In this document: positions 10,206 through 54,068 of the stretch, in pieces | Numbering within the stretch: position 1 is the first letter of the stretch | Layout: each line of letters opens with the position of its first letter | Assembly (NCBI GenBank): GCA_016707005.1 | Contig: JADJIQ010000002.1 | Span: 741,527 to 805,526 of the forward strand | Origin: Ignavibacteria bacterium | GTDB taxonomy: Bacteria; Bacteroidota; Ignavibacteria; Kapaibacteriales; Kapaibacteriaceae | DNA length: 64,000 nt | Direction of reading: 5' to 3' | The notes under the pieces: generated by a model | What the model was told of the DNA's origin: nothing | The model's input: only the letters and a program-made list of their open reading frames with translations | Database searches by the model: none | Translations under genes and position numbers: made by a program

Positions 10206-10343
10206 TAAAAAATACAGCCAAGTTGACCGTGGCGCCTTGTACGCATGCTGACCGTTGCTTCCTTCCGGACCTGGCGGGATTGGGCTTGGTACAATCGCAC
10301 GGGACTTGGCCGTGTTGTTCTCATTGCTTGAACCACAAATATA

Positions 10344-11734: not shown

Positions 11735-11744
11735 AACACACGAA

Positions 11745-11880
11745 GTTACGGAGTTACGGAGTTACGGAGTTACGCAGTTACAGAGTTACGGGGTTACAGG
11801 GTTACGGGGTTACTCTAGCACTCAAACACTCTAGCAATCTCATTAGCACATTAACACACTAGCACATTAGCACATTAACT
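11745..11880. repeat. composite tandem-repeat array: GTTACGGA x about 8 followed by degenerate TAGCACTC / ATTAGCAC units
   Basis: Direct reading: gttacggagttacggagttacggagttacgcagttacagagttacggggttacagggttacggggttact then ctagcactc...ctctagcaatctcattagcacattaacacactagcacattagcacattaact; begins 10 nt from tRNA 5' end. Confidence 0.75.
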
Positions 11881-14166: not shown

Positions 14167-14202
14167 TTACCGCACTCCATGCACATCTGTGCAGTCAACG
14201 AA

Positions 14203-14228
14203 GGCCCGCCATTGGCGGGCCTTTTTTT
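14203..14228 (+). terminator. rho-independent terminator after rpsA
   Basis: GGCCCGCC att GGCGGGCC followed by TTTTTTT. Confidence 0.6.
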
Positions 14229-14239
14229 ATGTTCCCACT

Positions 14240-15538
14240 ATGGACCTGAAACCCATTCTTGATGAATTGTTCGCGATGACGTTCCATGCCGGCATCAGAC
14301 CCGGCTTGGAGCGCATCACGGAGCTGTGCTCGCACCTTGATGAACCACATCTGCGCTATCCCGTCATCCACGTTGCCGGCACAAATGGCAAGGGCTCTAC
14401 CTGCTCCATGTTAGCCTCGATCCTCACCCACGCCGGGTACAAGGTTGGCCTCTACACCTCGCCGCACATCAGGCAGTTCAACGAACGTATTCGCATCAAC
14501 GGTACAATGATCTCCGATGAGGACGTGGCTCGTCTGGCTCGCCCCTTAATGGACCAGGCAAAGTCGTTCGGTGGAACGTTCTTTGAGGTCACCACAGCAA
14601 TGGCATTCCAATACTTTGCCGAGCGCAGAGTTGAGGTTGCGATCATTGAGACGGGGCTTGGCGGACGTTTTGATGCAACGAACATCGTACAGCCATTCCT
14701 GAGCATCATCACGCAGATCGATATCGACCACACGGAATACCTCGGCACAACACTTCCGCAGATCGCCGGCGAAAAGGCCGGGATCATCAAACAGGGGGCT
14801 CCTGTCGTGATCGGACATCGTTCCGGCATTGTGGTAAATGGACGGCCCGTTCCCGACATCCGAGATGTCTTCGTTCGTAAGGCAGAGTCCGCCAATACTC
14901 CGATCTCGTTCGCAGAAGACACGATCTATGTGGAAATGGATGCGATCCACCCCGACCTTACGATGACGGTGAGTGTTACGAATGACGCGGATCGCAAGTA
15001 CTACACAACCGACCTCTGTGGTCAGCATCAAACGAGCAACATCGCCACAGTGATCGCTGCCCTGCCGGCCATCAGTGAACTGTACTTCGTCGAAGAGCCA
15101 CACATACGAGAAGGACTGCTTCGCGTGAAGTCAACCTCTGGACTTTACGGACGATGCGACCTCATCAATGTAGATCCTTTCACAGTGATCGATGTATCGC
15201 ACAATCCCGGAGGCATTGCTGCCCTGCGAGACACGCTCATCGCCTCCGGCAAAACGCCGAACAGCATGCAGGTGGTCTTTGGTGCGATGTCCGATAAGGA
15301 CGTGGCTGGTATGATCGACGCCATCGCCCCGCTTGCACACACCCTACACCTATGCTCTCCTGCTCTCCCGCGCGCCCTTGCTGTGGAAGAGCTCCTCAAC
15401 CTGGCCCTGTCACGAGGCATCATGAACGCCGTAGCCCATTCGAGCGTGGCTCACGCCTACAAGGCAGCAATAGCTCATGGCCCAACCGTTGTGTGCGGGA
15501 GTTTCCATGTGATCGATGAAGTCATGCTAATGTGCTAA
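14240..15538 (+). CDS. folC: folylpolyglutamate synthase / dihydrofolate synthase
   Basis: P-loop VIHVAGTNGKGST, Mur-ligase family body; start moved to ATG at 14240 (MDLKPILDELF) right after terminator; last 4 codons and TAA stop lie inside ATGTGCTA repeat. Confidence 0.8.
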   Translation: MDLKPILDELFAMTFHAGIRPGLERITELCSHLDEPHLRYPVIHVAGTNGKGSTCSMLASILTHAGYKVGLYTSPHIRQFNERIRINGTMISDEDVARLARPLMDQAKSFGGTFFEVTTAMAFQYFAERRVEVAIIETGLGGRFDATNIVQPFLSIITQIDIDHTEYLGTTLPQIAGEKAGIIKQGAPVVIGHRSGIVVNGRPVPDIRDVFVRKAESANTPISFAEDTIYVEMDAIHPDLTMTVSVTNDADRKYYTTDLCGQHQTSNIATVIAALPAISELYFVEEPHIREGLLRVKSTSGLYGRCDLINVDPFTVIDVSHNPGGIAALRDTLIASGKTPNSMQVVFGAMSDKDVAGMIDAIAPLAHTLHLCSPALPRALAVEELLNLALSRGIMNAVAHSSVAHAYKAAIAHGPTVVCGSFHVIDEVMLMC

Positions 15539-15880
15539 TGTGCTAATGTGCTAATGTGCTAATGTGCTAATGTGCTAATGTGCTAATGTGCTAATGTGCT
15601 AATGTGCTAATGTGCTAATGTGCTAATGTGCTAATGTGCTAATGTGCTAATGTGCTAATGTGCTAATGTGCTAATGTGCTAATGTGCTAATGTGCTAATG
15701 TGCTAATGTGCTAATGTGCTAATGTGCTAATGTGCTAATGTGCTAATGTGCTAATGTGCTAATGTGCTAATGTGCTAATGTGCTAATGTGCTAATGTGCT
15801 AATGTGCTAATTTCGTGTATTAGCTCGTTAGCTAATTAGCACATTAGCACATTAGCACATTAGCACATTAGCACATTAAC
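15524..15880. repeat. foldback tandem array: ATGTGCTA x about 36 (15524-15810), 22-bp spacer, inverted ACATTAGC x 5 (15833-15880)
   Basis: Direct reading; right arm is exact reverse complement unit of left arm; array ends on the base before purH ATG. Confidence 0.9.
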
Positions 15881-17404
15881 ATGACCGCCCTCCTCTCCGT
15901 CTCCGACAAAACCGGCATACTTGAACTGGCTCGTGAACTTCATGGTTTAGGGGTTCGAATCATTTCTACAGGAGGCACGGCGAAGGCCATTGCCGATGCC
16001 GGCATTCCGGTGACAAAGGTTGCAGATATCACGGGATTCCCGGAGATCATGGATGGCAGAGTGAAGACGTTGCATCCGAAGATCCATGGCGGACTCCTTG
16101 CTGTGATGGATAATGAGGAACATCTGCGCCAAATGCATGAGCACGGCATTGAGAAGATCGACCTTGTGTTTGTGAATCTCTATCCGTTCGAGCAGACCGT
16201 TGCTCGAGAGGGGGCTTCGTACGACGAGATCATTGAGAACATCGACATCGGCGGTCCGGCCATGGTGCGCGCTTCTGCGAAGAATCATCGATTCACAACG
16301 ATCGTTGTCAACCCGGCACACTACAACACAGTGATCGATCATCTGCGATCGAACAATGAAGTGCCCCTTTCATTCCGACAACAACTGGCAATGGAAGCGT
16401 ACTCCCACACAGCTCATTACGACGCCTGTATTTCAGAGTACTTTGCCAAACACTTGCACTCTGGCTTTTTGTCGGAGACCGCAGTGCCATTACGTGCCGA
16501 TCAGCACCTACGGTATGGAGAGAATCCGCATCAGACCGCAATGCTGTACGGATCGTTCACAACGATCTTCCGTCAGCTCCACGGCAAAGAACTTTCCTAC
16601 AACAACATTCTCGATATCGATGCCGCATCAAAGCTGTGCCTTGAATTCGATGAGCCCACGGTTGTGATCGTCAAGCACAACAATCCATGTGGTGTTGGTT
16701 CCGGCAACGACCTGGTAGATGCCTATCGCAAGGCCTTTGCAACAGATACAGTGAGCCCGTTTGGAGGGATCATCGCCGTGAATCGCACGGTGGATCTCGC
16801 CTATGCCAACGAGGTACACTCTCTCTTTGCCGAGGTGATCATCGCACCTTCCTTCGATGAAGATGCGCTTGCAGTACTTACCAAGAAGAAGGATCGCCGC
16901 CTGATGGTGGTGGACACAGCAAAGCTTCGATCATCACTTGCGATGGATCTTCGGTCTGTTGCAGGGGGCTATCTGGCACAACACACGGATTCGATCCTCT
17001 TCAATGAGGCAGACCTTCGTGTTGTTACAGCACAGACACCAACGGACGAACAACGTCAAGCAATGCTCTACGCATGGAAGATCGCAAAACACGTTAAGAG
17101 CAATGCCATAGTGTATGCATCGCATGACCGCTCACTGGCCATTGGTGCCGGACAGATGTCGCGCATCGATTCCGCACGCATCGCTGTTCGCAAGGCGCAG
17201 GATGCCAGCATCGACCTGACGGGTTGCGCTGTTGCCTCTGACGCATTCTTCCCGTTCGCCGACGGATTGCTGCAGGCGGCAGAAGCCGGCGCATCATGCG
17301 TGATCCAGCCCGGCGGTTCGGTTCGCGATGAAGAAGTGATCGCAGCCGCCAACGAGAAGGGGCTTTCTATGATGTTCACCGGGACACGTCACTTCCGACA
17401 TTAA
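15881..17404 (+). CDS. purH: bifunctional AICAR transformylase / IMP cyclohydrolase
   Basis: MGS-like N-domain ([30 protein letters not shown]) and AICARFT domain; 507 aa. Confidence 0.9.
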
Positions 17405-25043: not shown

Positions 25044-26536
25044 GCCTCCCAACAACGATCGGCGAGCTGAAGGCAGCAGGATATCAATACGAGTCTGTGA
25101 AGGACGAGCTACGTCGCAACGTGATCGAACGACTGCGAACCAACACGCCCATCTTCTCCGGCATCATCGGATTCGATGACACCGTGATACCGCAGATCGT
25201 GAACGCCATTCTTGCAAAGCACGATATTCTCTTGCTCGGTCTACGCGGTCAGGCAAAGACGCGCATCGCACGTCAACTCACCACGCTACTCGACGAATTC
25301 ATCCCTGTTGTCAAGGGCTCCGAGATCAACGATCATCCGTTGCGCCCCGTGTCCTACCAGGCCGTGCAGCTCGTTGCCGAACACGGAGATGCTACACCGA
25401 TCGAATGGCGTCCGCGCGAGGAACGCTATGGCGAGAAGCTTGCAACTCCAGACGTTAGTGTGGCCGACCTCATCGGAGACATCGATCCGATCAAGGCTGC
25501 CTCGCAACGTCTGCATTATGCACATGAGGGCGCCATCCACTTTGGGATCATTCCGCGCTCCAACCGAGGCATCTTTGTCATCAACGAAGTACCCGATCTT
25601 CAGCCTCGCATTCAAGTAGCGTTGTTCAACATTCTACAAGAGCGCGATATTCAGATAAGGGGCTTTAATGTTCGCCTCCCGATGGACATCGTGATGGTGT
25701 TCACGGCCAACCCTGAAGACTACACCAATCGTGGATCCATCGTTACGCCACTTAAGGACCGCATTCAGTCGCAGATCCTCACGCACTATCCGCGCAGCAT
25801 CGAAGACGGCATGGCCATCACTGCACAAGAATCATGGGTTGAGCGCTCGGGAATGCCCCTTATCATCCCTACGTATCTCAGCCAGGTTGTTGAGTCCGTT
25901 GCCATGATCGCTCGCACGAGCGAATACATCGATCAAACCAGCGGCGTTAGTGCGCGACTCACCATCTCCACGATGGAGAACATGGTCTCCAATGCCGAAC
26001 GTCGCGCCTACATCACCGGCGAGATGATCGTAGCCCCCCGACTCTGCGACCTTGGTCAGGCACTTGCAGGCATCACCGGCAAGGTGGAACTCGTCTTTGA
26101 GGGCGAAGAAGAAGGACCGCAGAAGGTTGCACGAGCACTCATCGGCAAGGCCGTGCGCGAGGTCTTCCGTCTTTCCATGCCTGATCCGAATGTGCGCAGA
26201 GCTCGTAAGGGAACTGCTGAAGAGAAACCCGATCCCTATCAGGCCATCGTCCGGTGGTTCGAACAAGGTCACGTTGTGAACATCGATGACCGAATGACAA
26301 ACGAGGAATTCTACAACGCCCTCATCGCCGTCCCCACACTCGCTCAGCTCGCATCCGTCTCGTTCCATGTAGAGACGTCAGACACTATTCGTCTAGCAAC
26401 CGCTATGGAATTCATTCTGGATGCACTGCATCAACATTCCAAGCTTGCAAAAGACGACAACAGCATGCAGACCACGTACAGAGATCTGGTGGGAAGCATT
26501 TTTACGCCGCCTTTGTCGATGACAGAGGACGAATAG
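25040..26536 (+). CDS. AAA+ ATPase, Mg-chelatase/Lon-related N-domain-like (no protease domain)
   Basis: ATG overlaps ribE stop (ATGA); Walker A LLLGLRGQAKTRIARQL, Walker B GIFVINEVPDL, sensor region; architecture resembles N-terminal ATPase part of the Lon-related protein at 17425; stop TAG is first triplet of the TAGTTAC array. Confidence 0.5.
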   Translation: MSLPTTIGELKAAGYQYESVKDELRRNVIERLRTNTPIFSGIIGFDDTVIPQIVNAILAKHDILLLGLRGQAKTRIARQLTTLLDEFIPVVKGSEINDHPLRPVSYQAVQLVAEHGDATPIEWRPREERYGEKLATPDVSVADLIGDIDPIKAASQRLHYAHEGAIHFGIIPRSNRGIFVINEVPDLQPRIQVALFNILQERDIQIRGFNVRLPMDIVMVFTANPEDYTNRGSIVTPLKDRIQSQILTHYPRSIEDGMAITAQESWVERSGMPLIIPTYLSQVVESVAMIARTSEYIDQTSGVSARLTISTMENMVSNAERRAYITGEMIVAPRLCDLGQALAGITGKVELVFEGEEEGPQKVARALIGKAVREVFRLSMPDPNVRRARKGTAEEKPDPYQAIVRWFEQGHVVNIDDRMTNEEFYNALIAVPTLAQLASVSFHVETSDTIRLATAMEFILDALHQHSKLAKDDNSMQTTYRDLVGSIFTPPLSMTEDE

Positions 26537-26627
26537 TTACTAGTTACTGGTTACTAGTTACTAGTTACTGGTTACTGGTTACTAGTTACTAGTTACTGGT
26601 TACTAGTTACTGGTTACTATTTACTAG
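26534..26627. repeat. tandem array TAGTTAC / TGGTTAC x about 13 (left arm of 4HB cassette 1)
   Basis: Direct reading tagttactagttactggttactagttac... Confidence 0.85.
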
Positions 26628-26691
26628 GTCTGGCGAAGGAGAAGTTTATTGAGGCGTGTCACGTACTGACGTGTTGAGAGCACGTAGCAGG

Positions 26692-27090
26692 ATGGGTCAT
26701 GAACGAGATATCATAAAAGAGCGACTTGTCGCTAGTCCACTGCACATCCTTTCAATCGAGTTTTCTCGAGAGGTGCGCAGTCTTGTACGGAAGGCATTCC
26801 AACATCAGGTTGTTGAGCGAATGCCACTTGATCAACTGTATCGTTCGGGGTCCTCGGTTGGAGCGAATATCCGTGAGAGCAGATATGCAGAATCTCCAAA
26901 GGACTTTGTACATAAGCTCAAGATCGCGGAGAAAGAGCTGGGTGAATTCTTCTATTGGATTGGATTGCTGTCGTCGAAACACGACATTTTTGATGAAGAC
27001 GCTGCCGCTGCCTGCGTCAACAAAGGCACACAAGTCCAAAAGCTACTTTCTTCGATCATTGTAACAACGAAACGCAACAACAGTTTGTAA
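26692..27090 (+). CDS. four-helix-bundle protein (TIGR02436 / 23S rRNA intervening-sequence protein family)
   Basis: Family core ...VVERMPLDQLYRSGSSVGANIRESRYAESPKDFVHKLKIAEKELGEFFYWIGLL; first ATG at 26692 (ORF-track start 26656 is GTG). Confidence 0.65.
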   Translation: MGHERDIIKERLVASPLHILSIEFSREVRSLVRKAFQHQVVERMPLDQLYRSGSSVGANIRESRYAESPKDFVHKLKIAEKELGEFFYWIGLLSSKHDIFDEDAAAACVNKGTQVQKLLSSIIVTTKRNNSL

Positions 27091-27123
27091 TCTCTTACGA
27101 ATTGCAATTCAACGAGGTATGGT

Positions 27124-27152
27124 GTAACTAGTAACTAGAAACTAGTAACTAG
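27124..27152. repeat. inverted array GTAACTA x 4 (right arm of 4HB cassette 1)
   Basis: gtaactagtaactagaaactagtaactag = reverse complement of left-arm unit; ends 2 nt before stop codon of convergent peptidase gene. Confidence 0.85.
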
Positions 27153-32255: not shown

Positions 32256-32389
32256 GCTTTTTAAGCGCCTTTGTAAGCGCCTTCTTCAAGCGCCTTTGTA
32301 AGCGCCTTTGTAAGCGCCTTCTTCAAGCGCCTTTGTAAGCGCCTTTGTAAGCGCCTTTGTAAGCGCCTTCTTCAAGCGCCTTTGTAAGC
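32256..32389. repeat. tandem array of 12/13-bp units AAGCGCCTTTGT / AAGCGCCTTCTTC x about 10 (left arm of 4HB cassette 2)
   Basis: Direct reading. Confidence 0.85.
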
Positions 32390-32440
32390 TGAGTCACGTT
32401 TAAGGGTTGTGAGAGTACGAAGAGGTTTTAGGGGAACCCT

Positions 32441-32899
32441 ATGTCTCTTCTTCAACTCCGCATGTATAAACGGGCCGGCGAGATCTCTGATGAGGTTGCT
32501 CTGTTTGCAAGTGCATGGCCGCACATCCATCGGAACACGATCGGAGATCAGATCATTAGAGCGGCGGATTCGATCTCAAACAACATTGCTGAAGGGTATG
32601 GCAGAACAGCAACAGGAGAACGCATCCAGTTTCTGATGTATGCCGATGGCTCGATCTCAGAAACAAGAAACTGTCTACATAGAGCATTCGGCCGGAACCT
32701 CATCGACGCAGACACCAACGCTCGACTTCAACAGCGCCTCGTATCATTGTCGATTAGTATCGTAGAGTTCGCACATGCTATAATTGAAAGAGACCCATCA
32801 TACAAGGGTCCATTCCGCGAACGAATCGCAAAACGCCGCGCCTGGCTTGTGAAGAAGCTCGCCAAGAACGGCGCAGCTCCCCCAAACGAACAATCTTAA
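32441..32899 (+). CDS. four-helix-bundle protein (TIGR02436 / 23S rRNA intervening-sequence protein family)
   Basis: Canonical family motif ...IIRAADSISNNIAEGYGRTATGERIQFLMYADGSISETRNCLHRAF...; ATG start; 152 aa. Confidence 0.8.
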   Translation: MSLLQLRMYKRAGEISDEVALFASAWPHIHRNTIGDQIIRAADSISNNIAEGYGRTATGERIQFLMYADGSISETRNCLHRAFGRNLIDADTNARLQQRLVSLSISIVEFAHAIIERDPSYKGPFRERIAKRRAWLVKKLAKNGAAPPNEQS

Positions 32900-33160
32900 A
32901 GAAGGCGCTTGCAGAAGGCGCTTGCAGAAGGCGCTTGAATAAGGCGCTTGAATAAGGCGCTTGAACAATGCGCTTGAACAAGGCGCTTGAACAAGGCGCT
33001 TGAACAAGGCGCTTGAACAAGGCGCTTGAACAAGGCGCTTGAACAAGGCGCTTAACGAAGGCGCTTAGAGAAGGCGCTTGAACAAGGCGCTTAGAGAAGG
33101 CGCTTGAACAAGGCGCTTGAACAAGGCGCTTAACGAAGGCGCTTGCAGAAGGCGCTTACA
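32900..33160. repeat. inverted tandem array of 13-bp units (A/G)AAGGCGCTTGAAC and variants x about 20 (right arm of 4HB cassette 2)
   Basis: Reverse complement GTTCAAGCGCCTT matches left-arm unit family; last unit overlaps the pcrA stop codon (cttaca). Confidence 0.85.
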
Positions 33161-52288: not shown

Positions 52289-53577
52289 AAAGCCCCATGC
52301 GCACACTCAACATCTTCTTCATGTGCCTCCTTGTACTTGGCATCCCTACCTCTGTTTGGGCCCAAGACTCCATGGAAGGTATCATTGCCATCGTTGGTCG
52401 TGAGATCGTTCTCAAGTCCGATGTAGACGGTCAGATGGAGATGTTGGCCCAGCGTGATCCGCGCGTAGACCGCAAGGACGTCAAACTGCGTCAAGCAATC
52501 CTCGATCAGCTCATCAACGAGCGCCTCATCATGACCAAGGCCATAGAGGACAGCATTGAGGTAACAGATGAAGAGATCACGCAGCGCATGGAATATCAGA
52601 TCCAAACACTGATCCAGCAATTCGGCTCAGAGAAGCGTATCGAAGACATGTACGGCATGAGCATGATGCGCATCCGACGTGAATTCCGCGATGAGATCCG
52701 CAAACGTCTTCTCGTGGAGAAGATGCAACAGAAGCAATTCGGTCAGGTCAAGGCCTCCCGTGCAGATGTGGAAGCGTTCTACGCCAAATACCGCGACTCC
52801 TTGCCTAAGGTACCGGAACGTGTAGACCTCTTCCACATCGTGAAGTACGTGAAGGCCTCCGACGAAAAGAACAAGGAAGCATACACCCTTGCCATGCGTA
52901 TCAGAGACTCCATCGTAAAAGGGGGCTCCTTCAGCGACTTCGCACGCAGGTATTCCGGAGATCCGATCTCTGCATCGAACGGTGGCGACCTCGGAACCGT
53001 TGATCGCGGCAAATTTGTCCCGGCTTTCGAAACCGCTGCATTCAACCTGTCCCCTGATGAGATCTCTCAACCAGTCGAGACGCCGTTCGGATGGCACGTT
53101 ATTCAGCTCATCAGCAAGACAGCAACCTCGATGACTGCGCGACACATCCTCATTCGCGTAGGTCAGAGCGACGAAGACCGAGAACGCGTTAAGACCGAAC
53201 TCGTTGCACTCAAACAACGTGTTGAAAAGGGCGAGAACTTTGAGACACTCGCTCGTGAATTCAGTGATGAAAAAGAGACCCAAGGCTTCGGTGGATCAAT
53301 GGGTCAGATCGAACTCGCCCGTCTTCCGGAAGAGATGCAAACATCTCTCAATGCCATGAAGGACGGTGCTGTCTCCGACCCTTCACCGTATGCCGCAGAC
53401 CCAACTAAGCCCGGCTTCCACATCCTCTACCGCAAGCGCATCATCCCTGCTCACACCCCGTCCGTCGACGAAGACTACAAACAACTCGAACAAATGGCAT
53501 CCTTCGAAAAGAAGCAACGCCTCGAACAAGAGTGGGTGCAGAAGCTGCGGAAAGAGTTGTATTGGGAAACGCGTTAG
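52285..53577 (+). CDS. surA: SurA-type chaperone / peptidyl-prolyl isomerase
   Basis: Signal peptide MKSPMRTLNIFFMCLLVLGIPTSVWAQ; SurA N-domain plus two parvulin domains (FGWHVIQLI, GFHILYRK); ATGA overlap; stop TAG is in the repeat. Confidence 0.75.
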   Translation: MKSPMRTLNIFFMCLLVLGIPTSVWAQDSMEGIIAIVGREIVLKSDVDGQMEMLAQRDPRVDRKDVKLRQAILDQLINERLIMTKAIEDSIEVTDEEITQRMEYQIQTLIQQFGSEKRIEDMYGMSMMRIRREFRDEIRKRLLVEKMQQKQFGQVKASRADVEAFYAKYRDSLPKVPERVDLFHIVKYVKASDEKNKEAYTLAMRIRDSIVKGGSFSDFARRYSGDPISASNGGDLGTVDRGKFVPAFETAAFNLSPDEISQPVETPFGWHVIQLISKTATSMTARHILIRVGQSDEDRERVKTELVALKQRVEKGENFETLAREFSDEKETQGFGGSMGQIELARLPEEMQTSLNAMKDGAVSDPSPYAADPTKPGFHILYRKRIIPAHTPSVDEDYKQLEQMASFEKKQRLEQEWVQKLRKELYWETR

Positions 53578-53618
53578 AGTGCTAGAGTGCTAGATTGTTA
53601 GAGTGCTAGATTGTTAGA
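53573..53618. repeat. tandem array of units TAGAGTGCTAGATTGT x about 3 (arm of 4HB cassette 3)
   Basis: gttagagtgctagagtgctagattgttagagtgctagattgttag. Confidence 0.85.
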
Positions 53619-53621
53619 CCC

Positions 53622-53990
53622 TCATCTGGTTTTTGGGGGTCGTTGTTGATTGCGAACTGCGGTAGATATAGACGAACTCATCAGCCGTCCAAGCTCATCA
53701 AGAAGACCATCGATCGTTTGTTTCCATGAGCTTGGCACTCCATTTCTTTCGGTGAAATGGATAGAGAGAGATTCGGCTTCTCGTAACTCCTTATGAGCAA
53801 GCTTCAGTTTGTGTATGAGGTCTCGCCGACTTTGGCAGCTCTGCGCTTCAGAGATGTTATTCATGACAGCTAGGGCGACACCCTCCGTCTGATTTCCAAG
53901 ACGAAACAGATGTTGACTGTTTACGATCCTCACAACTTCTAACAGATAGATCGATAACAGACGCGATTTTATCATTGATGGGGACGTCAT
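53622..53990 (-). CDS. four-helix-bundle protein (TIGR02436-like, divergent)
   Basis: ...NSQHLFRLGNQTEGVALAVMNNISEAQSCQSRRDLIHKLKLAHKELREAESL aligns with the NIAEG...F..L.IA.GS..E motif region of the other two copies; track start 54032 is a GTG inside the repeat, first ATG at 53990. Confidence 0.55.
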   Translation of the reverse strand: MTSPSMIKSRLLSIYLLEVVRIVNSQHLFRLGNQTEGVALAVMNNISEAQSCQSRRDLIHKLKLAHKELREAESLSIHFTERNGVPSSWKQTIDGLLDELGRLMSSSISTAVRNQQRPPKTR

Positions 53991-54024
53991 CCTTCTATGT
54001 GCTACTAACACCACAGAACGTGAC

Positions 54025-54068
54025 TCTAGCACTCTAACAATCTAGCACTCTAACAATCTAGCACTCTA
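54025..54068. repeat. inverted array CTCTAGCACTCTAACAAT x about 2.5 (other arm of 4HB cassette 3)
   Basis: Exact reverse complement of 53573 array unit; ends 6 nt before stop of OMP gene. Confidence 0.85.

Follow-up and report, generated by a model that had tools for sequence, protein, structure and literature searches.

What fills the space between two adjacent bacterial genes when the stop codon of one and the start codon of the next are joined by nothing but repeat, and does that repeat have a role? We met this question in a 64,000-nt stretch of an Ignavibacteria bacterium genome (assembly GCA_016707005.1, contig JADJIQ010000002.1; hereafter the window), where a pure 8-bp minisatellite and its inverted copies lie between folC and purH. 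An earlier note on this DNA had considered an emptied or never-filled cassette site, a strong hairpin terminator for folC and a repeat-number-dependent, phase-variable control of purH. We found the element to be polymorphic between strains and to have relatives that follow an orientation rule with respect to their neighbouring genes. We lean towards reading it as a trailer of folC, a remnant of the purH promoter and a leader of purH.

Architecture of the folC-purH foldback

Tandem Repeats Finder resolved the element into two arms (Table 1). The forward arm (window positions 15525-15811) has a period of 8, the unit ATGTGCTA, 35.9 copies, 100% matches and a score of 574. The reverse arm (15819-15878) has the same period, 7.5 copies and 90% matches, and its unit is the reverse complement of ATGTGCTA. 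A probe of two ATGTGCTA units, with one mismatch tolerated, gave 39 matches in the window and none in 100 shuffles, and the longest inverted pairing joined 15521-15587 to 15819-15885 over 67 nt with 93% complementarity. These searches bore out the earlier description of a long pure minisatellite followed by inverted copies with no gene between them, fused to the folC stop at one end and to the purH start at the other, with a total repeat length of 357 bp. The 22 bp that had been given for the distance between the arrays needed correction, as this interval consists of a 7-nt loop, TTCGTGT, and two degenerate inverted units. The loop is identical in every complete allele of the ATGTGCTA unit family that we recovered.

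The folC gene is called as a 432-aa gene in public assemblies, and its stop is the TAA of the first full repeat unit, inside which the last two codons also lie. The last four codons had been attributed to the repeat, and ATG CTA ATG TGC TAA is indeed in repeat register. However, an array-free relative (L128) shows the ancestral end VMLVR* (GTG ATG CTC GTG CGT TAG) in place of the VMLMC* of the window; Met-Leu is therefore ancestral, and the repeat contributed no more than the last two codons and the stop. Counted from the conserved GSFHV motif, the FolC tail is as many residues long as that of the array-free relative; its length is thus ancestral too, and a C-terminus made by the repeat, beyond these two codons, is ruled out.

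The stem runs past the arrays into both the folC and the purH coding sequences, and stop codons are present in all three frames in both arms. In the forward arm, TAA recurs in all three frames and there is a chain of AUG-UGC-UAA mini-open reading frames with UAAUG overlaps, whose use by ribosomes would be speculation. The reverse arm begins with 2.5 degenerate copies, followed by 5 perfect ones, and ends ...CATTAAC right before the ATG. The last reverse unit is degenerate (ACATTAAC) and ends at 15880, with the purH ATG at 15881, a start that is backed by N-terminal conservation among relatives. This arm contains no AUG, GUG or UUG, is richer in C than in G and places an A at -3.

Copy number differs between strains

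An identical PurH protein was found in 9 contigs, and identical proteins occur in metagenome-assembled genomes (MAGs) of Ignavibacteria / Candidatus Kapabacteria from wastewater. Among assemblies with exactly the same FolC or PurH, we counted 38 forward units (GCA_016704805.1), 37 (GCA_963853545.1), 35 (the window), 8 (GCA_016703055.1) and 5 (both GCA_017989025.1 and GCA_020047475.1). Two further assemblies with indel noise in their arrays and flanks gave ~24 and ~18, numbers that are approximate, since the irregular units (L002, L003) resemble long-read indel errors and the flanks also contain 6-9 gaps. Reverse-arm copies varied among assemblies as well, from 5 down to 4 and 2. An array length invariant across strains, which the earlier note had named as grounds for refuting its reading, was thus not what we found. 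Several short-read contigs and one Joint Genome Institute contig break off within the array, and a metagenome scan for the folC 3' end returned one contig only, which terminates inside it. An assembly artefact is ruled out by the presence of the array in more than 10 independent assemblies, from long as well as short reads.

A different kind of allele was found in strain L004 (ERZ27280359). Its flanks are 99.95% identical to those of the window, and the same junction carries a foldback of another octamer, TAGAGTGC/ACTCTAAC. Within ~4 kb on each side, the two sequences differ at one position just left of the array and at three positions in the first 156 bp of purH, so that the differences form a short divergent patch around the array (L004:5859-6156 vs window 15523-16036). 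At the left-hand position, 15523, the window has C where L004 has G, and it is this C that makes GTCATG perfectly complementary to the CATGAC of purH. The patch could be a short recombination tract or the product of palindrome-templated correction.

The other array sites that we compared were invariant, namely those at 11.7 kb (five assemblies) and 48.6 kb (five assemblies) and the cassette at 53.5 kb (four assemblies), all three being degenerate and the first two also described by impure units. Hypervariability of all arrays is thus ruled out, with three other sites identical between strains. That the long pure array varies while the impure ones stay fixed indicates that purity and length predict instability, as expected for slippage. 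The jump from ~5-8 to 35-38 forward units was probably caused by replication slippage in the pure array, and it is probably near-neutral, because neither a reading frame nor the spacing of a promoter is altered by it.

Distribution and orientation of related arrays

Exact (ATGTGCTA)x3 was present in at least 120 stretches of species-representative genomes, nearly all of them from Bacteroidota of many orders, together with an Ignavibacteria MAG. Longitalea arenae and Hymenobacter saemangeumensis are among the cultured bacteria that carry these arrays. Eight viral contigs in IMG/VR (L135-L142) contained exact (ATGTGCTA)x3, as opposed to none for a control unit of the same composition. The set of unit families known from the window was also found in L016, L046 and L105, from a MAG labelled Candidatus Didemnitutus (Verrucomicrobiota), with ATGTGCTA, ACTCTAGC (x14.8) and AACTAGT (x22.9), which suggests either mis-binned Kapabacteria-like contigs or transfer between phyla.

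The 8-kb blocks that we fetched contained 479 short-period arrays, with a period of mostly 7 or 8. In a typical member of the family, the stop of a gene is followed by (TAATGTGC)n, then by a loop that is short and unique, and by (GCACATTA)m, with a start codon at the end. The distance between the arms of inverted pairs of related arrays was below 60 nt in 22 cases, 60-250 nt in 13 and 250-900 nt in 8, and the forward arm preceded the reverse one in 16 pairs, with the opposite polarity in a single pair. One foldback, in Hymenobacter saemangeumensis (L109:4456-4592), uses a variant unit, TGATGTGC/CATCAGCA, in both arms and holds a second, unrelated perfect palindrome (GAACGTCATGCTGAGCGAAGTCGAAGCATC...) in its loop, which indicates that foldback centres can host nested hairpin elements.

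With gene boundaries set by a crude open reading frame (ORF) caller, and read in the sense of the neighbouring gene, arrays after stops were in the ATGTGCTA orientation in 58 cases and in the opposite one in 12, while arrays before starts were in the TAGCACAT orientation in 28 cases and in the opposite one in 7. Forward arrays overlapped or abutted the stop in 38 of 70 cases (within -22 to +4 nt) and reverse arrays abutted the start in 21 of 55 (within -4 to +7 nt of the ATG). As arrays usually abut stops and starts in this way, the way in which the foldback joins the folC stop and the purH start is usual for its family. The rule is not a by-product of foldback polarity, because solo arrays, defined by the lack of an inverted partner within 700 nt and making up 94 of the 138 family members, obey it too: the two orientations stood at 31/8 after stops and at 3/15 before starts (Fisher p = 1.7e-5).

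A related rule emerged from unrelated arrays with 7-9-nt units (L007-L126). On the sense strand, G exceeded C after stops (40 vs 10) and fell below C before starts (17 vs 4; p = 2e-6). The rule persisted (p = 3e-4) once arrays that overlap a codon were left out, and the excess of G is thus not an artefact of arrays that supply a stop. Units containing ATG, GTG or TTG made up 4 of 27 before starts, compared with 28 of 67 after stops. Bacteroidetes are known to lack Shine-Dalgarno sites, to tune initiation by mRNA structure and an A at -3, and to be depleted of AUG near their start codons (PMC6847099). In the window, a Shine-Dalgarno-like motif was seen in only 12 of 39 genes. An AUG-free, G-poor and weakly structured leader with an A at -3 would suit a lineage that initiates translation without such sites.

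The folC-purH element is a tandem array of a 5-11-nt unit in non-coding DNA, its unit recurs across loci and lineages, and its orientation to the start is fixed; a second ATGTGCTA-type array is present in the window itself, at 11841-11877. With moderate confidence, we regard the element as a locally expanded member of a widespread class of 7-8-nt arrays in bacteria of the Fibrobacterota-Chlorobiota-Bacteroidota (FCB) group, which extend from stop to start and are oriented by gene direction.

History of the junction and a candidate purH promoter

The junction has taken several forms among relatives. Arrays are absent from L167 (72% FolC identity) and from L169 and L170 (67%), where folC and purH are separated by a spacer of 99-123 nt, and also from L128 (71%), where a ubiA-like gene on the other strand stands between them. 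In L127 (86% FolC identity), a TAGAGTGY array at the folC stop is followed by a ubiA-like gene and by a GCACATTA array upstream of purH, so that the arrays on the two sides of this gene belong to separate unit families. L134 and L168 (74%) lack ubiA and have a foldback, short and degenerate, that uses the unit family seen in the window. An emptied or never-filled cassette finds no counterpart here, as relatives show nothing, a short foldback or the ubiA-like gene, and none has a cassette with a gene of the PF05635 family described below. The opposite-strand ubiA-family gene (PAS_9 + UbiA) occupies L127:3817-5073 and L128:5275-6639 and is missing at the junction of the window, L134, L167 and L169. 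Set against FolC identity, this distribution requires more than one loss or gain.

A conserved GGTATCTTTG is located at -45 to -49 from the purH ATG in all array-free relatives, and in L127 it lies upstream of the reverse (leader) array. It is a perfect match to TAnnTTTG, which we take to be the -7 promoter box of Bacteroidota. TAnnTTTG occurs 10 times in the window, where ~31 occurrences are expected, and five or six of the ten are upstream of genes in sense orientation. The loop of L004 carries GGTAATTTTG, with a perfect match at -65 (TAATTTTG at the site that matches the window box), the loop of the window carries GCTAATTTCG, with a match at 5 of 6 positions at -73, and the counterpart in L134 and L168 is GGTAATTTGCC. 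The best reading is that the loop and the last forward unit together represent a remnant of the purH promoter, as a candidate -7 box. The view that promoter and ribosome-binding region must both sit in repeat DNA is refined by this, since the best promoter candidate is the loop, the sole non-repeat DNA in the foldback, and Shine-Dalgarno sites are largely absent from the window. In eight other foldback loops, inspected by eye, no clear TAnnTTTG was found, so that the promoter reading is specific to the folC-purH junction.

RNA folding and a proposed mode of action

When folded as RNA, the folC-purH region reached -169 kcal/mol, compared with -109 ± 4.6 kcal/mol for shuffles (z = -13). The reverse-arm leader of purH alone gave -12.2 kcal/mol and was no better than shuffles (z = -1.1). 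The leader together with only five forward units formed a 42-bp stem of -75.6 kcal/mol (z = -13.9).

The suggestion of a strong hairpin terminator for folC holds as far as the strength of the hairpin is concerned, but its stem is followed by CATGACCGCC, with no U-tract, and a scan for intrinsic terminators was negative at 15520-15890. The scan did find a canonical terminator at 14200-14224 (11-bp stem, T7 tail), which stops only ~6 nt before the folC start codon; folC expression must therefore rely on read-through or on a promoter inside rpsA. No Rfam family was assigned at the foldback, tRNA-Arg and the signal recognition particle (SRP) RNA being the only ones to reach the gathering score in the window.

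We propose that the forward arm, (AUGUGCUA)n, would serve as the 3' trailer of folC and supply its stop codon, and that the reverse arm, (UAGCACAU)m, would serve as the 5' leader of purH, being AUG-free, G-poor and weakly structured, with an A at -3. A purH mRNA that started in or just 3' of the loop would carry only the reverse arm and stay open. A read-through transcript from folC would carry both arms, which could pair as a perfect 42-60-bp duplex and so sequester the purH AUG; such an RNA would be poorly translated for purH, and the long hairpin would form only there. That the stem of the read-through RNA would also be a likely substrate of RNase III is plausible by analogy with the excised stems of 23S rRNA intervening sequences (PMC4990558). 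We hold the reading of trailer, promoter remnant and leader, taken as a whole and as neither an on/off switch nor an emptied cassette, to be somewhat the more probable account of the junction. In place of a switch or an empty cassette it offers a layout that can be tested, and the alleles that occur naturally, with 5 to 38 copies or, in one case, with another unit, could be used to look for effects on expression.

PF05635 genes between inverted arrays

Versions of the architecture with a gene inside also occur in this genome, and three are present in the window. The ORFs at 26.5, 32.3 and 53.6 kb, which lie between inverted arrays (Table 1), belong to the PF05635/TIGR02436 family of four-helix-bundle (23S rRNA intervening sequence) proteins. 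We take PF05635 to be the family that is found in 23S rRNA intervening sequences and whose members include Avd, an accessory protein in diversity-generating retroelements. For the cassettes at 26.5 and 53.6 kb at least, the genes on either side point towards the cassette, and their stop codons come from the arrays. The three copies have a common upstream motif, GTCACGT...GTGTTGAGAGCACGTAG, with the spacing GTCACGT-N(6-8)-GTGTTGAGAGCACGTAGMAGG.

Among the ORFs of at least 90 aa between neighbouring arrays, 7 of 45 were PF05635-like (the three of the window and those of L084, L090, L097 and L113). Six of these seven lie between homologous inverted arms, the exception being L090, where the arrays are not an inverted homologous pair. 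The proteins are 27-56% identical to each other, and those of the window 27-36% where alignable, which does not support a recent horizontal spread of one cassette. It is reasonable to regard the folC-purH element as a gene-less form of this recurring architecture, and there is no sign that it ever held a PF05635-type gene.

Alternative explanations

Several points weigh against our reading. The orientation statistics rest on gene boundaries from the crude ORF caller, on MAG fragments that were chosen for containing an array. The preference for the forward orientation after stops is not explained by constraints on leaders alone. Simple slippage does not account for an exact octamer that is common to a whole phylum, nor for the sharing of one unit by both arms; the arms share one unit family in the window and another in L004, and L127 has different units on its two sides. 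At the putative promoter, the -7 box of the window has a C in place of the consensus T, and no TTTG -33 element was visible upstream of purH in the window. It may therefore be that purH is transcribed only from upstream.

The junction could also carry a selected intercistronic RNA hairpin in a folC-purH operon, similar to repetitive extragenic palindromic (REP) sequences and bacterial interspersed mosaic elements (BIME), which would protect the folC 3' end, be cut by RNase III and set the purH:folC ratio. We consider this unlikely, but a serious contender, given a very stable stem that extends into both coding sequences, the recurrence of foldbacks at this junction in species whose FolC is 74% identical, the L109 arms that both bear one variant unit, and 35 foldbacks with gaps below 250 nt in the sampled loci. 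Yet the solo majority of the family follows the orientation rule without forming a hairpin pair, array-free relatives do without the element, in roughly half of the arm pairs the units of the two arms differ at one base, and the arms are very unequal (36 vs 7.5 here and 4.5 vs 17.6 in L088), so that most of the array is unpaired. Distinctly doubtful, in our view, is a remnant of, or landing pad for, a mobile hairpin-loop PF05635 cassette, emptied or not yet filled, to be likened to a MITE (miniature inverted-repeat transposable element) with its autonomous element or to the ORF-less and ORF-bearing rRNA intervening sequences. No relative that we examined has a PF05635 gene at folC-purH, and the 7-nt loop contains no gene remnant and resembles the native purH promoter, not cassette sequence, even though the three PF05635 genes of the window lie between inverted arrays of the same style and share a leader motif, other Bacteroidota (L113, L097) have cassette arms of the ATGTGCTA unit family, and the unit family of the 53.5-kb cassette builds the L004 foldback. 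The association itself, with 7 of 7 PF05635-like ORFs in the data set flanked by arrays, is inflated by the sampling of loci for arrays, and in these loci cargo-less foldbacks outnumber cargo-bearing ones 35 to 8. Intervening sequences of 23S rRNA, in whose hairpin loops PF05635 ORFs are also found, have been called selfish elements (PMC4990558), but here no presence/absence polymorphism of a cassette was seen between the strains compared, and no recombinase or target-site duplication was evident.

That changes in repeat number switch or tune purH between cells, as in a contingency locus, is very improbable, although the array is long, pure, polymorphic between strains and directly upstream of the purH start, and although tandem repeats in a 5' untranslated region (UTR) tune uspA2 in Moraxella catarrhalis, as this case is cited in PMC4679880. 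With the folC stop contained in the first unit and the purH ATG not part of the array, copy number cannot alter a reading frame, and since the array is periodic, the sequence beside the loop box is the same at any copy number; a phase switch that acts through frame or spacing, and with it the control of purH proposed earlier, is ruled out on anatomy. Moreover, the strongly variable arm is the one distal to purH, which belongs to the housekeeping purine genes, as opposed to surface or restriction-modification genes, and the strain-dependent copy number of this hypermutable tract (5-38 forward and 2-5 reverse units) was seen between assemblies only. A product of slippage without any role at the RNA level, its regularities being due to purifying selection on the neighbouring genes, appears scarcely credible when the exact unit is conserved across the phylum, arrays after stops favour the forward orientation even though either one would provide stop codons, and arrays persist at the same two spacers across species; it would fit the array-free relatives with normal folC and purH and the ~seven-fold variation in length with unchanged flanking proteins. 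We are doubtful, finally, about an undescribed system of FCB-group bacteria made of repeat-built untranslated elements, in which a small set of conserved 7-8-nt units (core UAGCAC / UAAC) would be bound by a conserved RNA- or DNA-binding factor, arrays would be placed from stop to start in one fixed orientation, foldbacks would be landing pads for mobile PF05635 hairpin-loop cassettes or their gene-less form, folC-purH would be actively expanding, and the exchange of the unit in L004 would be templated rewriting of the arms as opposed to ordinary recombination.

Described classes of element could be set aside more directly. An array of clustered regularly interspaced short palindromic repeats has 23-50-nt repeats with unique spacers, whereas the units here are 8 nt long and contiguous, with no spacers. 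Against a MITE stand the variable copy number of the arms, loops that are unrelated between loci and the lack of a visible target-site duplication where the element meets the stop and the start. Its unit, ATGTGCTA/TAGCACAT, also sets it apart from the strict TAACTGA family of MacGregor, and with a loop of only 7 nt and no ORF it is not a PF05635 hairpin-loop cassette.

Relation to known repeat systems

Literature searches on the unit sequence and on PF05635 in combination with tandem repeats returned nothing directly relevant. We could not find described the octamer across Bacteroidota, the strand rule (G>C after stops; C>G and no AUG before starts) or array-flanked PF05635 genes, all of which are apparently undescribed in the searchable literature. 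These family-level regularities are more surprising than the folC-purH locus itself, which is of moderate interest. If the rule holds genome-wide, it would tell us about the ways in which untranslated regions are tolerated and shaped in bacteria that lack Shine-Dalgarno sites, would explain assembly breaks at gene boundaries, and might reveal associations of PF05635 proteins outside retroelements.

Short tandemly repeated repetitive (STRR) sequences are heptamers of cyanobacteria that also occur inside a hairpin of the cyanobacterial RNase P RNA. They differ from the arrays described here in phylum and units, and we know of no stop-to-start placement rule or inverted-arm architecture described for them. 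REP and BIME are enterobacterial intergenic hairpin repeats at gene 3' ends that affect mRNA stability, and consist of single imperfect palindromes mobilised by REP-associated tyrosine transposases. In the foldback elements of Drosophila, the long inverted arms are composed of short tandem repeats, and a coding centre is missing from most copies; as these are eukaryotic transposons, the analogy is structural only.

The closest comparison is with the TAACTGA heptamers of Beggiatoaceae, Cyanobacteria and five Bacteroidetes (MacGregor 2015, PMC4679880), which reach up to 43 copies. These repeats are oriented and often end 1 nt before start codons, with no known function or transfer route (PMC4679880). 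Like them, the arrays described here are intergenic tandem arrays of 7-8-nt units, oriented to the downstream gene and near its start, with tens of copies in Bacteroidetes; in both cases the genomes have few Shine-Dalgarno sites, the unit is common to distant lineages and contigs break in the repeats. The unit, however, is another one (ATGTGCTA/TAGCACAT), and the foldback with its own complement contrasts with a single inverted set among 170 in PMC4679880, where the orientation after stops, the G/C strand rule, the link to PF05635 and an allele series among strains are not described. As far as they are presented in PMC4679880, the long simple sequence repeats of Mrazek et al. (2007) resemble our arrays, as do STRR, in being lineage-specific non-coding repeats of the 7-nt class whose copy number is driven by slippage.

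In the 23S rRNA intervening sequences of Coxiella and Leptospira, an S23p/PF05635 ORF lies in the loop of a long stem, and ORF-less versions exist (Warrier 2016, PMC4990558); excision of the stem by RNase III is established for the Coxiella sequence (PMC4990558). The gene-in-loop layout recurs at three sites of the window, and folC-purH has the same layout without the gene. Unlike the intervening sequences, these elements are found between protein-coding genes instead of within rRNA, and tandem octamers or heptamers make up their stems. BrickBuilt, a minisatellite-containing MITE of Porphyromonas gingivalis with promoter activity inside the element (Klein 2015, PMC4596501), likewise consists of spacer-less tandem units of variable copy number in intergenic DNA of Bacteroidota. 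Its units, however, are 23-nt direct repeats with leader and tail subunits and short terminal inverted repeats, located 49-591 nt from coding sequences, and it is restricted to one species. The AGAT repeats in the uspA2 5' UTR of Moraxella catarrhalis, in the form in which PMC4679880 cites them, share with folC-purH a pure array 5' of a start and strain-dependent copies. In contrast to that contingency locus, folC-purH has no frame or spacing logic, concerns a housekeeping gene, and has its variable arm in the trailer of the upstream gene.

Other features of the window

Table 1 Features of the window, with positions counted from its first nucleotide
Feature	Position	Strand	Basis or remark
folC, folylpolyglutamate/dihydrofolate synthase	14240-15538	+	Pfam Mur_ligase_M, Mur_ligase_C; NCBIfam TIGR01499, E = 4e-104
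GTCATG in the folC coding sequence, pairs with CATGAC (15880-15885) at the purH start	15521-15526	+	Inverted-pair search
Forward arm, ~36 perfect ATGTGCTA copies	15524-15811	+	Tandem Repeats Finder
TAATTTCG, 5-of-6 match to TAnnTTTG, spans forward-arm end and loop, 73 nt 5' of the purH ATG	15808-15815	+	
Unique 7-nt loop TTCGTGT	15812-15818	+	Sequence reading
Reverse arm, 7.5 copies of ATTAGCAC	15819-15880	+	Tandem Repeats Finder
purH, AICAR transformylase / IMP cyclohydrolase	15881-17404	+	Pfam MGS, AICARFT_IMPCHas, E = 9e-116
Three adjacent 8-mer arrays, ACGGAGTT x9, ACTCTAGC x3.6, CATTAGCA x4.6	11740-11877		Between tRNA-Arg(TCT) and 82-aa ORF
PF05635 gene between inverted TAGTTAC x13 and GTAACTA x4 arrays	26534-27152		
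PF05635 gene between inverted 12-mer and 13-mer arrays	32257-33157		
Second cargo-less foldback, heptamer (TAGTTAC)~4 then (GTAACTA)~14, almost no loop	48589-48718		
PF05635 gene between inverted TAGAGTGC / ACTCTAGC arrays	53575-54068		Unit family of the L004 folC-purH foldback

The three adjacent arrays near 11.7 kb end GCACATTAAC and supply the stop codon of the 82-aa ORF, which is conserved but belongs to no known family. The spacer between tRNA-Arg(TCT) and this ORF also contains 8-mer arrays in the species with 74% and 86% FolC identity (L134:1477-1554; L127:4-122), which indicates that the occupancy of a spacer by arrays can outlast the units themselves. The second cargo-less foldback is impure and occupies the whole interval between a CN-hydrolase gene, from its TAG stop onwards, and the ATG of murC.

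On the minus strand, positions 10213-10311 hold the bacterial small SRP RNA, which has a TAnnTTTG box immediately upstream. In L128, from a related species, a 9-nt array, GAGTCTACT x7.6, with 98% matches is found a short way upstream of folC (L128:3761-3828). A 643-646-aa ORF runs across the corresponding region in L129, L130 and L133, sister contigs from that species, where no ORF was called in L128, and its counterpart in the window is a 616-aa S1 gene.

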